Virus record (IMG/VR): IMGVR_UViG_3300012971_000145
Direction: 5' to 3' (one strand)
Length of the DNA stretch: 14,230 bases
DNA from: a virus
Of the stretch, positions 4,648-7,447 are shown in pieces. A program made the position numbers and the translations under genes. The notes under the pieces are model-generated. The model saw nothing but the letters and a program-made list of their open reading frames with translations. It ran no database searches and had not been told where the DNA came from. Within the stretch, counting starts at the first letter, position 1. Each line of letters begins with the position of its first letter.

Positions 4648-4959
4648 ATGGTTTGGAGCGTGTTCGATCTCAAGGGTCAGTCGCACCCGGTCCCTGGCAA
4701 GGTGTGCGTGGTGTTTCAGGATGAAGTTTCGGCGGGCGAGGCGACCGTGTTCCTCGATCAGTTCAAGCCCAAAGGCGTCAGTATGTATTTTGCGGTCCAC
4801 ACCGCCAGCGTGGACGTGGGCGAAGGCAACGAGGACGCCTTCATCGCCACCGTCCTCCAGCACCCTGACAAGGTGAAGGCTGCGGAGCGCGAAATGAGCA
4901 TCATCCTGTTCGGTGGAAGCCAATTCGGGGGGAACCTGTTCGGGGAGCAAAAGCCATGA
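4648..4959 (+). CDS. hypothetical protein, 103 aa
   Basis: GGAGGT lies 9 nt upstream of ATG 4648. It has TAACATG coupling to the previous gene. Confidence 0.6.
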   Translation: MVWSVFDLKGQSHPVPGKVCVVFQDEVSAGEATVFLDQFKPKGVSMYFAVHTASVDVGEGNEDAFIATVLQHPDKVKAAEREMSIILFGGSQFGGNLFGEQKP

Positions 4960-5414
4960 GCGACGACATCAAGGTGTACCAGCGGGGGGAAAGCCCCCAG
5001 GAGAAACCCTATTTCGAGGCGTTGCTCGCCGCCCTCCCGGAAGGGTGGGCGGTGACGGAGGGGCCGTATTGTCCGGGCAAGGAGGGTCATCTCACCTACA
5101 AGGCGGTCAGCGCCCAGGGCGGGCAGTATCGGATCGCGCATGTTCGGGACGGCGACTTTGCCGTTACCCTGGAGCCGGCCAAAATCGACCATAATTGGTT
5201 GGCGCAGCAACTCGGAGCCGAGATCGTTGGCAAGGTAGAAGGGCCAATTCACGGCATGGCCGGAGTCGCTAATCTGACCCGGCAATATCAACAACGCATG
5301 AAGGAGAAACGAGATGCTGCCGACCCAGAAGTGGATACTGGCCAAGGTGATCTCCGGGGGCCAGACGGGGGCGGACCAGGCGGGCCTACGGGCCGCACGG
5401 GCGATGGGCATTGA
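4956..5414 (+). CDS. hypothetical protein, 152 aa; the 3' 101 nt overlap the next gene
   Basis: ATGA coupling at 4956. The Gly-rich tail 'GPDGGGPGGPTGRTGDGH' lies wholly inside the next gene's start region. Confidence 0.45.
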   Translation: MSDDIKVYQRGESPQEKPYFEALLAALPEGWAVTEGPYCPGKEGHLTYKAVSAQGGQYRIAHVRDGDFAVTLEPAKIDHNWLAQQLGAEIVGKVEGPIHGMAGVANLTRQYQQRMKEKRDAADPEVDTGQGDLRGPDGGGPGGPTGRTGDGH

Positions 5415-5829
5415 AACCGGCGGCTGGGTGCCTTTCGGCTGTGTCACCGAGGACGGCCCCAATCCAGCGCTCCTCAAGGAGTACGATCTCAAGGAGATGG
5501 ATAGCGACAAATACCCGCCCCGCACGGAGGCCAACGTGCGGGATTCGGACGGCACTATGCGTTTCGCCGCTAACTTCGCCACCGCCGGTGAACGCTGCAC
5601 CCTGAAGGCGATCAAGTGGTTCAATAAACCATATTTCGACGTGGACTGGAACAACCCGCCGTCCATCCAACAGGCGGTGGAGTGGATCGTCGCCAACAAA
5701 GTGAAAACGCTCAACGTCGCCGGCAACCGGGAAAGTACCAACCCAGGCATCGGCAGCTTCGTGGAACAATATTTGGTCCAGGTGTTCGCCCAGGTCATAC
5801 TTAAACCCGTGCGGAGTGCGACGAAATGA
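5314..5829 (+). CDS. SLOG-superfamily protein of the 'molybdenum-cofactor-carrier'/YpsA-like family
   Basis: AAGGAG lies 9 nt before ATG 5314. The N-terminal 'ISGGQTGADQAGL' P-loop-like motif is followed by 'GGWVPFG..EDG.NP...Y.L.E......Y..RT..NV.DSDGT'. This is the characteristic MoCo-carrier/YpsA pattern. Confidence 0.75.
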   Translation: MLPTQKWILAKVISGGQTGADQAGLRAARAMGIETGGWVPFGCVTEDGPNPALLKEYDLKEMDSDKYPPRTEANVRDSDGTMRFAANFATAGERCTLKAIKWFNKPYFDVDWNNPPSIQQAVEWIVANKVKTLNVAGNRESTNPGIGSFVEQYLVQVFAQVILKPVRSATK

Positions 5830-6584
5830 TCGACTTTGAACGAGGCGCGAAAACCACCGGCTCGAAGTTCTACTTCCTCACCGGCGACGAGGCCGTGATG
5901 GAGTGGAACCTCATCAACTACATGATCCGCTTCCACCGCCACAAGGGCTACCAGTTCGTGCTGCCGCCCTTTTTGGTAAATAAGAAAGTGGGCGAGATGG
6001 CCGGCATTCTCCCTCGTTTCGAGGGCGACTACTACCAGACCAAGGATGGCCTCATGCTGATCCCGACCGCCGAGACGCCCCTGGTCGGGATGCACGCCAA
6101 TGAAATCTTCAAGGAGGAAGAGCTTCCCCGCCGCTACGTCGCCTACTCCCCCTGCTTCCGCAAGGAGGCTGGGGCCTACGGTGCCAAGGACAAGGGCTAC
6201 CGCCGGGTCCATCAGTTCAATAAGGTCGAATTGTTTACCATCTGCACGCCGGACTCGTCGGAGTTTTACCACAACCAGATGGTGGACGACGTGTGCGAAC
6301 TGCTCAAGAATCTCAACGTCGAACATCGCAAGGTAGTGCTGGACGAAAAGGACCGTTCGCCCGTTTCCAATCAGACCATCGACATCGAAGTGCTGGTCGG
6401 CAAGGAGTGGTTGGAGGTATCTTCTATTTCCAACACCGGCGACAACCAGAGCCGGGTCGCCCAGGTCCGTTATAAGCCAAAGGACGGCAAGAAGAATGTC
6501 AAGTGTCACTTGCTCAACGGTTCGGGCGTTGCCCTCCCCCGGCTGATGCTCGCCCTGGCTGAGCGCATCAACGAGTGGAAATAA
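5826..6584 (+). CDS. seryl-tRNA-synthetase-like protein, catalytic core only (class II aaRS motifs 1-3), lacking the N-terminal coiled-coil arm
   Basis: ATGA coupling to the SLOG gene. It aligns to bacterial SerRS from the start of the catalytic domain onward. Matches are 'LIPTAETPL', 'YSPCFRKEAGAYGAKDKGYRRVHQFNKVEL', 'DIEVLVGKEWLEVSSISN' and the motif-3 'LNGSGVALPRLMLALAE'. The protein is only 252 aa. Confidence 0.85.
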   Translation: MIDFERGAKTTGSKFYFLTGDEAVMEWNLINYMIRFHRHKGYQFVLPPFLVNKKVGEMAGILPRFEGDYYQTKDGLMLIPTAETPLVGMHANEIFKEEELPRRYVAYSPCFRKEAGAYGAKDKGYRRVHQFNKVELFTICTPDSSEFYHNQMVDDVCELLKNLNVEHRKVVLDEKDRSPVSNQTIDIEVLVGKEWLEVSSISNTGDNQSRVAQVRYKPKDGKKNVKCHLLNGSGVALPRLMLALAERINEWK

Positions 6585-6585
6585 C

Positions 6586-6921
6586 ATGGCTGTTCACAAA
6601 GGCTGGGACTTCTTCAGCGCCGACCCCGGCAAAGTTGAAAAATGCGAATGCCGGGTGTGCGGCGAAACCTGCGACGTGAAACGTAATGTCATGGGTGCGA
6701 CCGGCTACGCCGAGTCCCTGGCCGGGATGAAGCACCTGCATGACAACTTCGTGTGCCCCCACGCCCAGGAAGACTGGCACAAGCAAATGCGTTCCTTGCG
6801 CATGGAACAGGAAAATACCAAAAGCGCCGCCCTCAAGGAGCTTTTGGAAGCAGAAATTACGCAAATCTACGTCAACAAGAAAACCACCGAGGGCTGGAAG
6901 CCCGACTGGAGAGATTTATGA
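6586..6921 (+). CDS. Cys/His-rich small protein, putative Zn-finger
   Basis: TAACATG coupling. 'CECRVCGETC' is followed by 'H..H...CPH'. It is 111 aa. Confidence 0.55.
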   Translation: MAVHKGWDFFSADPGKVEKCECRVCGETCDVKRNVMGATGYAESLAGMKHLHDNFVCPHAQEDWHKQMRSLRMEQENTKSAALKELLEAEITQIYVNKKTTEGWKPDWRDL

Positions 6922-7163
6922 TGATCGAAGTCTGCCCGGCCTTCACCCCGGATGATGCCCGGCAGCAGGCCCGTGCCGCTGGTTATATTGTGAACGACCG
7001 CCTGCAAGCCATTTCGATGGGAATTGGCATTGGCGAGATGGACCCCGGCTACATCCTCAAGGTGGAAAAGGGGGAGCAGGTGGCTCAGGCCGATAATATT
7101 CGGGAGCGCCCCGACCTGGAAGGGGTGTTTGACGACCTGATGGAGCAAGGAGGGGAGGAATGA
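6918..7163 (+). CDS. hypothetical acidic protein, 81 aa
   Basis: ATG 6918 overlaps the upstream TGA. TGGAGAG lies upstream. The track ORF 6753.. carries an implausible N-terminal extension. Confidence 0.5.
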   Translation: MMIEVCPAFTPDDARQQARAAGYIVNDRLQAISMGIGIGEMDPGYILKVEKGEQVAQADNIRERPDLEGVFDDLMEQGGEE

Positions 7164-7447
7164 TCCACTTTCATGATGTGGATATTGAACATAAGAATAT
7201 CCACGAACTCAAGGCCGAGCTTCGCCGGCTGCGGCAGGCCATCCGCCATCACCGTGATCTCAAGGGCAACGACCGCTGCTGGATGGACGACCTGGAATTA
7301 TACGCCCACCTGCCGGAGCGCGACCAGGCGGACCAAAGCTTGCCAACCAAGGAGGAGTTTTTGAAAAACTGTGCCGCCTATTGCGAGAAATACTGGACTC
7401 TGCGCTGCCCGCACCAGGAATGCTCGCCCCCGCCCGATCCCCGTTGA
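7160..7447 (+). CDS. hypothetical protein, 95 aa, Cys-containing
   Basis: ATGA coupling. AGGAGGGGAGGA lies upstream. Confidence 0.55.
   Translation: MIHFHDVDIEHKNIHELKAELRRLRQAIRHHRDLKGNDRCWMDDLELYAHLPERDQADQSLPTKEEFLKNCAAYCEKYWTLRCPHQECSPPPDPR

Follow-up and report, generated by a model that had tools for sequence, protein, structure and literature searches.

Seryl-tRNA synthetase cores without a tRNA-binding arm form a conserved family on viral contigs and adjoin a cpYpsA SLOG gene in one clade

Introduction

Do a SLOG-domain gene and the truncated seryl-tRNA synthetase (SerRS) gene that directly follows it make up one biochemical system, or are they independent genes that have come to lie side by side? 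The question is raised by positions 4648–7447 of a 14,230-nt stretch of viral DNA (IMG/VR record IMGVR_UViG_3300012971_000145), the whole of which is referred to here as the window. A sequence-only reading of this region described a module of seven tightly coupled genes, and proposed that its SLOG protein and its amino-acid-activating enzyme, which we call mini-SerRS, could form a new aminoacyl-nucleotide synthesis or sensing system. We report that the pair is far from a conserved two-gene system, and that the pairing is probably inherited gene order and not a defined system. As the genes are separate in most cases, interest shifts to the reduced synthetase, and it is the mini-SerRS family, not the SLOG–SerRS pairing, that merits follow-up.

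As many as 15 aminoacyl-tRNA synthetase (aaRS) genes and 67 tRNA genes occur in huge phages, and a role in charging phage tRNAs has been proposed for the synthetases (PMC7162821). The SLOG family concerned here, cpYpsA, is known, functionally uncharacterized and common in large phages; SLOG domains of the YpsA clade are common in jumbo phages, and it has been proposed that they bind or degrade ADP-ribose-derived signals (PMC9503650).

Results

Mini-SerRS is a bacterial-type catalytic core without arm and tail

Mini-SerRS consists of the catalytic core of a bacterial-type SerRS and lacks both the tRNA-binding arm and the C-terminal tail, in agreement with the earlier identification of the gene as a truncated SerRS. 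It matches positions 151–400 of the 418 in profile TIGR00414 (E = 1.4e-77) with 261.4 bits, a score that lies under the equivalog cut-off of 301.65 because the protein is truncated. The methanogen-type profile TIGR00415 (serS_MJ) gives 18 bits (E = 6e-4), compared with 261 bits for TIGR00414. The best solved relative is Aquifex SerRS (PDB 2dq3, residues 151–400 of 425, E = 1e-53), and an AlphaFold2 (AF2) model of mini-SerRS, with a predicted local distance difference test (pLDDT) score of 84.7, resembles SerRS cores with template modeling (TM) scores of 0.87–0.91 and 35–43% identity in the structural alignments. The first residue of mini-SerRS corresponds to SerRS residue 149–151. About 148 N-terminal residues are therefore missing, which comprise the first part of the core and the coiled-coil arm that recognizes the long variable arm of tRNA-Ser, and about 25 residues of the C-terminal tail are missing as well.

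Class II motifs 1–3 and the serine- and ATP-binding residues are all present. Among 41 aligned members of the family, T81-A82-E83, R112 and E114 in motif 2, E135 (KVE), E197/S199/S200, N231-G232-S233 and R239 in motif 3 are invariant; from structural work on Thermus thermophilus SerRS, we take these to be the positions that contact ATP and serine. The motif-2 loop is kept at full length. When 100 positions conserved in 116 cellular SerRS cores were compared, 63 were kept in mini-SerRS, including every invariant catalytic one. Eukaryotic SerRS has M at the position where mini-SerRS reads HLLNGS in place of HTLNGS. A change in amino-acid specificity based on this substitution was considered and rejected, as the serine-contacting S of NGS, placed by motif register, is invariant. 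A split gene, with the arm encoded separately, was also rejected for the sequence available. A hidden Markov model (HMM) of the arm, built from the N-terminal 137–180 residues of cellular full-length SerRS proteins from the metagenome scan, identified no arm-encoding open reading frame (ORF) in the window or in 20 loci of the family (best E = 0.11).

Conservation of the active site bears on one alternative, in which mini-SerRS would be a non-catalytic regulator that poisons host SerRS by forming inactive heterodimers, and so shuts off the host, or that binds some other host protein. SerRS is an obligate dimer in which tRNA is bound across subunits, a property that would make such poisoning feasible. 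A precedent for a regulatory role exists in SLIMP, a SerRS paralogue (PMC9437257). Catalytic and substrate-binding residues are nonetheless invariant in 41 diverse mini-SerRS proteins, and the ratio of nonsynonymous to synonymous substitution rates (dN/dS) is 0.03–0.12; because a mere binding protein is not expected to keep an invariant active site, we regard a regulator of this kind as very unlikely.

The mini-SerRS family is confined to viral and metagenomic contigs

Members of the mini-SerRS family are found on viral and metagenomic contigs only, where they form a large and strongly conserved group with 61–88% identity. The best 120 protein clusters are 61–100% identical to the window protein, and almost all are 245–283 aa long, a few having N- or C-terminal extensions. 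All 41 aligned members start at the motif MxDFERGAK, near SerRS position 150; the C-terminus of nearly all lies some 10 residues past motif 3. GC content varies from 33 to 62% among family loci while identity remains at 62–77%, which means that phages with widely differing hosts carry the gene. Searches of 185,579 cellular genomes, one per species, and of 50,697 deposited phage genomes detected no member. The best cellular match was a canonical SerRS with 49% identity, and the best match among the phages (40.6%) was a 433-aa, full-length SerRS from a jumbo phage of Brevundimonas. Nor did megablast with the whole window match any of these phage genomes. We found no description of an arm-less phage SerRS family in the literature searched, including the main text of PMC7162821.

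A single-protein scan detected no relatives of the SerRS core on viral contigs, and an alignment-based scan found them, on IMG/VR viral contigs of 533 and 499 kb and on contigs of 622–673 kb. Window proteins recur on metagenome contigs from ENA and JGI. One JGI contig of 669,797 bp has a near-identical gene order: DUF3307, three small ORFs, cpYpsA, the 252-aa SerRS core, ORFs of 111, 81 and 95 aa, a major vault protein (MVP)-like gene, a gene with Anticodon_2 and DUF2934 domains, and PS_pyruv_trans. PHROG families are matched by three of ten window proteins scanned, and the window carries tRNA genes. From all this, the window, which contains no structural phage gene, probably comes from a huge phage. 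In two huge-phage loci, TnpB/Cas12f-like (OrfB_IS605) and HNH-like genes adjoin mini-SerRS (L007, 191–1456; L093, 6757–7926; the loci compared are numbered with the prefix L), which suggests that the region is prone to insertion of mobile elements.

The SLOG gene is an ordinary cpYpsA

Identification of the upstream neighbor as a SLOG gene was borne out. Residues 12–157 match profile positions 1–144 of 145 in PF12694 with 143.2 bits, against a cut-off of 26.2 (E = 6.4e-42), and the motifs SGGQTGAD, ETGGW, RTxxN, DSDGT and LNVAGN are present. SGGQTGAD, ETGGW, DSDGT and LNVAGN fall in invariant or near-invariant columns of a 34-sequence alignment; the ligand-loop motifs, whose loss would have counted against the proposed system, are intact. 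The family profile matches a solved structure, PDB 3IMK, annotated as a "putative molybdenum carrier protein" (E = 3.9e-31). The protein is likely to be a small Rossmann-like nucleotide-binding or nucleotide-processing protein.

SLOG–SerRS adjacency is limited to one clade

Adjacency of the two genes recurs outside the window. It is seen in the window group (L001, L013, L014, L015, L017 and a 670-kb contig), in a divergent relative, L257 (identities of 60% for MVP, 54% for SLOG and 74% for the SerRS core), and in an uncultivated virus genome (UViG) of 532 kb (L004, L009, L099). The two homologues therefore do co-occur elsewhere, as the sequence-only reading required, within a single huge-phage clade in which synteny is wider than the pair. 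L257 shares with the window the genes designated by position as 2055, 2563, 2883, 3373 and 3543, the C-terminal part of 4956, SLOG, the SerRS core, 6586, 7160, MVP, and Anticodon_2+DUF2934; L004 shares 2883, 3543, DUF3307 and DUF2934. As synteny spans at least 10 kb and so reaches well beyond the pair, the adjacency is accounted for by common descent.

Outside this clade the two genes part. No cpYpsA gene flanks mini-SerRS in any of 15 other family loci with upstream sequence (L007, L010, L011, L012, L018, L019, L024–L028, L044 and L093–L095), an HMM search included; L023 was not counted separately, as its contig is near-identical to that of L011. Conversely, a SerRS core lies within 4 kb in 1 of 80 viral cpYpsA loci, and that one is the 532-kb UViG. 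The immediate neighbors of cpYpsA in 62 viral loci are a heterogeneous set of nucleotide- and DNA-metabolism genes, among them PolIII alpha, phosphoribosyltransferases, UDG, ThyA, dUTPase, adenylate kinase and CinA, and include no aaRS. A DUF2934 gene lies just 3′ of cpYpsA in the four closest viral loci outside the clade (L096, at 6496–6753; L097; L105; L112), and is a more recurrent neighbor of cpYpsA than the SerRS core.

With 0 of 15 and 1 of 80 loci carrying the pair, the neighborhood test lends no support to SLOG and an amino-acid-activating enzyme as a new aminoacyl-nucleotide system. A link restricted to the clade has also to be weighed, in which cpYpsA and mini-SerRS, perhaps with the 111-aa and 95-aa ORFs downstream, would work as a pathway without tRNA: the SLOG protein would hold a nucleotide-type ligand to which seryl-adenylate is handed on, or would sense seryl-adenylate as such a ligand, with nucleic-acid modification, signaling or anti-defense as the outcome. 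The SLOG ligand-loop motifs are intact and mini-SerRS has lost its tRNA-binding arm, both of which suit such a pathway. So does the junction itself, which is direct in every lineage, as ATGA in the window and as overlaps of 1 nt (L257) and 8 nt (L004), and which persists while SLOG identity drops to 53–54% and flanking genes are replaced. Survival of the junction amid this turnover fits some functional link in this clade, and for that reason we retain the possibility, as an unlikely one. Weighing more heavily are the absence of the pair from the 15 other mini-SerRS loci and from 79 of the 80 viral cpYpsA loci, the lack of an aaRS theme among cpYpsA neighbors elsewhere, and the sufficiency of common descent for syntenic lineages; in addition, mini-SerRS is no less conserved at loci that lack a neighboring SLOG gene. 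None of ten proteins scanned (the 4269–7447 chain, the MVP-like protein and Anticodon_2+DUF2934) matched a defense-system model of PADLOC-DB 2.0 at E ≤ 1e-3. The most specific form of this idea, in which arm-less SerRS, cpYpsA and the two conserved small downstream proteins use seryl-adenylate to build or read a serylated nucleotide or nucleic-acid mark, is something of a long shot; if true, it would represent new chemistry for phage counter-defense or signaling.

The region is the end of a 14-gene chain

The genes discussed above are part of a chain of 14 genes that extends from 2055 to 7447 and is preceded by a minus-strand gene at 1450–2028 (Table 1). In the L001 gene table, adjacent genes of the chain either overlap or are separated by no more than 10 nt. 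The end of the chain is marked by a promoter-like site and a 59-nt spacer, where the unit of a vault-like gene begins; the region thus lies directly upstream of that gene and its promoter, as had been noted. Most genes at 2055–4646 are syntenic in L014, L015 and L257. Since the tight chain starts at 2055 and not at 4648, the boundary of the proposed seven-gene module is arbitrary.

Chaining of the seven ORFs by ATGA or TAACATG, taken previously as a sign of stoichiometric co-expression, was confirmed at six junctions (TAAcATG at 4644–4650 and 6582–6588; ATGA at 4956, 5826, 6918 and 7160). The junction 5′ of SLOG is different. Here the 152-aa ORF, whose stop codon is at 5412–5414, overlaps the SLOG gene out of frame by 101 nt, and overlaps of 60–100 nt precede SLOG in relatives L013, L014, L015 and L017 also. 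Automatic gene calls place the SLOG start late, at the equivalent of 5404; we assign it to 5314 because the Pfam match extends back to residue 12 and the GGQTGAD loop is where 33 homologues start. Stop–start coupling is general to the operon and does not set seven genes apart as a unit; because such overlaps occur throughout, they have little bearing on any specific partnership.

All seven ORFs show dN/dS values of 0.03–0.42 in comparisons with L013, L014, L015 and L017, and the lowest value (0.03) is reached by the SerRS core and the gene that follows it. Purifying selection against four relatives indicates that these are real genes and not chance ORFs. A 609-aa antisense ORF at 4758–6587 is, judging from this plus-strand evidence, presumably a shadow ORF of high-GC DNA.

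Table 1. Features of the gene chain and of its surroundings in the window. dN/dS values are from comparisons with L013, L014, L015 and L017.
Feature	Position	Strand	Observations
Upstream chain ORFs	2055–2582, 2584–2886, 2883–3362, 3373–3600, 3582–3881, 3881–4267, 4269–4646	+	Gene table of L001
ORF, 103 aa	4648–4959	+	Clade only; dN/dS 0.34–0.42
ORF, 152 aa	4956–5414	+	Residues 72–130 conserved clade-wide; dN/dS 0.09–0.22
Shine-Dalgarno-like AAGGAG	5301–5306	+	7 nt 5′ of SLOG ATG at 5314; read from sequence
cpYpsA-family SLOG gene, 171 aa	5314–5829	+	PF12694, E = 6.4e-42; dN/dS 0.14–0.24
Mini-SerRS gene, 252 aa	5826–6584	+	TIGR00414, E = 1.4e-77; PF00587, E = 1.2e-28; dN/dS 0.03–0.12
ORF, 111 aa, possible zinc binder	6586–6921	+	CxxC...HxH...CxH; dN/dS 0.03–0.09
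ORF, 81 aa	6918–7163	+	Closest relatives only; absent from L014, L015, L257; dN/dS 0.12
ORF, 95 aa, large uncharacterized domain family	7160–7447	+	dN/dS 0.06–0.13
Promoter-like site, TTGACA, 16 nt, TACACT, with TG	7444–7471	+	10/12 matches plus TG
tRNA-Ala (tgc)	12992–13063	+	
tRNA-Val (tac)	13243–13313	+	
tRNA-Ile (tat)	14003–14074	+	

tRNA and translation genes near mini-SerRS

Mini-SerRS often lies inside phage tRNA arrays, and loci of its family were compared with control loci of cpYpsA. tRNA genes number 101 in 19 family loci, compared with 83 in 79 controls that contain about three times more sequence. Two to four tRNA-Ser genes lie within approximately 6 kb in 6 of 19 family loci and in 6 of 79 controls (Fisher p = 0.011). 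In L024 a tRNA-Ser gene begins 5 nt past the mini-SerRS stop codon, in L025 one ends 46 nt 5′ of the mini-SerRS start, and in L011 four tRNA-Ser isoacceptors are found 0.6–2.5 kb downstream. These are ordinary tRNA-Ser genes of 84–95 nt with a long variable arm. Other translation genes adjoin the family as well: IleRS-like, GluRS and MetRS genes in L004, a TyrRS/TrpRS-type gene in L095 and, recognized by eye from ORF translations and not by HMM, the C-terminus of a class II aaRS in L020 and a release-factor-like gene in L024. The association with tRNA-Ser genes suggests that mini-SerRS may serylate tRNA-Ser.

Two unusual tRNAs were encountered in this survey. In L095, the anticodon of the tRNA at 13956–14031 is CTA; ARAGORN calls this tRNA tRNA-Pyl, and it may be an amber suppressor. 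L004 encodes one with a 4-base anticodon (aagg) at 16815–16897. Together they hint at recoding or frameshift suppression.

Neighborhoods of the family also speak to a second tRNA-independent proposal, one that does not involve SLOG. Mini-SerRS could be a serine activator, working either as a transferase of the kind represented by amino acid:carrier protein (aa:CP) ligases or as a generator of dinucleotides of the diadenosine tetraphosphate (Ap4A) type, made from trapped seryl-adenylate, that perturbs host physiology. SerRS can catalyze Ap4A synthesis. Both the arm and the C-terminal tail have been lost with no arm encoded nearby, all adenylate-forming residues have been kept, and truncated SerRS-like aa:CP ligases offer a precedent (PMC9437257). 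The core of mini-SerRS, however, is bacterial-type and not of the methanogen type found in those ligases (18 versus 261 bits), its motif-2 loop is full-length, and no carrier-protein domain (PP-binding or carrier-protein Pfam families) appears in any neighborhood table. Placement in tRNA arrays beside tRNA-Ser would also be left unexplained, and we consider a serine activator improbable, though worth keeping in mind.

Small companion proteins

The small flanking proteins are clade-specific accessories. The 103-aa and 152-aa ORFs upstream of SLOG are fused into one ORF in L014 and L015, and the former is absent from L257; the 103-aa protein has no match in Pfam, PHROG, NCBIfam or PADLOC, and the 152-aa protein no family match in Pfam, PHROG or NCBIfam. 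The 81-aa ORF and the gene at 4269–4646 come and go among relatives.

Within the clade, the most constant companion of mini-SerRS is the 111-aa protein, which follows it throughout with 48–96% identity. C22, C25, H50, H52, C57 and H59 are kept in all relatives, including the most divergent of those compared (L017), and zinc binding is plausible from this Cys/His pattern. Its sole Pfam match, to zf-BED, is below threshold (E = 0.042), and its AF2 model (pLDDT 58) is too poor for a fold search. The description of these gene products as zinc-finger proteins is weakly supported overall: the conserved Cys and His residues of the 111-aa protein speak for it, and the sub-threshold zf-BED match and the presence of only two conserved cysteines in the 95-aa protein speak against it. 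A universal downstream partner of mini-SerRS was rejected, as downstream neighbors outside the clade are mutually unrelated; the ORF that follows the SerRS core in L095 is also 111 aa long and is not homologous.

The family of the 95-aa protein is large, with representative proteins numbering 1464 at E ≤ 1e-3; it shares the motif LRxAIRxHRDxKGxDRCWxDDxxLY...LPPxEEFLxNC and is elsewhere fused to MOSC, HNH_3 and GNAT domains. The profile of this family matches the tRNA-binding N-terminal domain of PylRS marginally (5v6x, 5ud5; E = 0.03), with A[LI]RxH[KR]xxKxxxRCxxxD in common. If true, this match would be interesting given the arm-less synthetase two genes upstream; we rejected a PylSn-like tRNA-binding domain, since the hhalign probability is only 14% and the match is probably due to chance.

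Other genes of the window

Upstream, the plus-strand gene at 2883–3362 has a weak match to DSPc (dual-specificity-phosphatase-like; E = 1e-4, below the cut-off), and that at 3881–4267, also on the plus strand, encodes a DUF3307 membrane protein (phrog_2470, "moron, auxiliary metabolic gene and host takeover"). The two genes have syntenic counterparts in the 532-kb UViG. Downstream, 7507–10161 (+) encodes an 884-aa MVP-like protein (MVP_shoulder, E = 1.3e-25; Vault_3, E = 8e-11) that is 60–96% identical in relatives; the gene has its own promoter-like site (Table 1) and a terminator-like hairpin with a 15-bp stem at 10177–10213. The only report of viral MVP homologues to date is a gut-phage preprint from 2023 (10.1101/2023.11.10.566534).

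The 237-aa product of 10619–11332 (+) joins the C-terminal part of a GluRS-type anticodon-binding domain (PF19269, E = 1.5e-10) to DUF2934 (E = 2e-13) and has no catalytic domain; in the 532-kb UViG (L004) a full 443-aa GluRS gene is followed by a separate DUF2934 gene. L257 has a stand-alone fragment of DUF5915, presumably the IleRS C-terminal domain. The phage clade seems to keep several aaRS "pieces".

Discussion

Our preferred reading, in which our confidence and our doubt are about equal, is that two independent auxiliary genes lie in a generic phage operon and that mini-SerRS is part of a translation-takeover toolkit. The region would then be the downstream half of a packed 14-gene operon of a huge phage, not a dedicated seven-gene machine, and cpYpsA and mini-SerRS would be neighbors by chance in this clade. 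From its residues, mini-SerRS is predicted to retain all that is needed to bind ATP and serine and to form seryl-adenylate, and it would act on tRNA-Ser within the toolkit. As tRNA binding by SerRS crosses the dimer, one possible route is a heterodimer in which host SerRS provides the arm and the phage core an active site. Alternatively, abundant phage tRNA-Ser might be charged slowly in an arm-independent manner, or some tRNA-binding partner might assist.

Several observations weigh against this reading. SerRS without its arm reportedly charges tRNA very poorly, as deletion work in E. coli is said to have found, and a translational role therefore needs an extra assumption; none of the loci searched supplies a separately encoded arm. 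The association with tRNA-Ser is moderate, at 6 of 19 loci, and tRNA-Ser is the nearest tRNA at some of these loci only. tRNA-Ser genes are absent from the window, whose tRNA-Ala, tRNA-Val and tRNA-Ile genes are 6 kb away. The 37 conserved positions at which mini-SerRS departs from cellular cores include an otherwise invariant Arg-Arg after ExxS and ENYQ after motif 3, the loss of which implies that some canonical function may have changed; these changes may also follow from loss of the C-terminal tail. Finally, the direct, overlapping cpYpsA–SerRS junction has been kept in three sub-lineages despite turnover of flanking genes.

A SerRS found only in phages and lacking its tRNA-Ser recognition element poses a sharp question: how, or whether, the core works without a tRNA-binding domain. 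If a host subunit or a separate factor is borrowed, this would be a new viral way into host translation, and if the core is tRNA-independent, it would be a new serine-activating enzyme.

The cpYpsA protein compares closely with its own family, the YpsA-clade SLOG proteins (PF12694, 3IMK; PMC9503650), with a full-length match and all family motifs; the window copy is an ordinary member, set apart only by its neighbor. Mini-SerRS shares with canonical bacterial SerRS (serS, TIGR00414; A. aeolicus 2dq3, E. coli 6r1m) the class II fold, motifs 1–3, TAE, the KVE glutamate, ExxS and NGS. It differs in lacking some 148 N-terminal and 25 C-terminal residues, Arg-Arg and ENYQ, in its sub-equivalog score and in its viral and metagenomic distribution; by score and by absence of the arm, it is not a canonical SerRS. 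An arm-less SerRS has been made in the laboratory. The E. coli arm-deletion mutant (PDB 9qof), which remains able to fold and to bind a seryl-adenylate analogue, ranks with the best structural matches of the mini-SerRS model (TM score 0.90). Mini-SerRS, in contrast, is a natural, conserved family, more reduced (252 versus 368 aa) and also without the tail.

aa:CP ligases and SLIMP are likewise derived from SerRS and have roles outside standard tRNA charging (PMC9437257). The former combine a methanogen-type core with carrier proteins, and mini-SerRS, with a core of the wrong type and no carrier protein, is not one of them. Nor is it SLIMP-like, since SLIMP is reported to be catalytically inactive and the catalytic residues of the mini-SerRS family are intact. 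A parallel in context is offered by the sets of aaRS and tRNA genes that huge phages carry (Al-Shayeb et al. 2020, PMC7162821), as mini-SerRS sits in such islands; SerRS proteins of cultured jumbo phages are full-length, whereas those of the window family are arm-less. Mini-SerRS is thus of a known kind, the phage-encoded aaRS, and what appears to be new here is an arm-less phage SerRS family.

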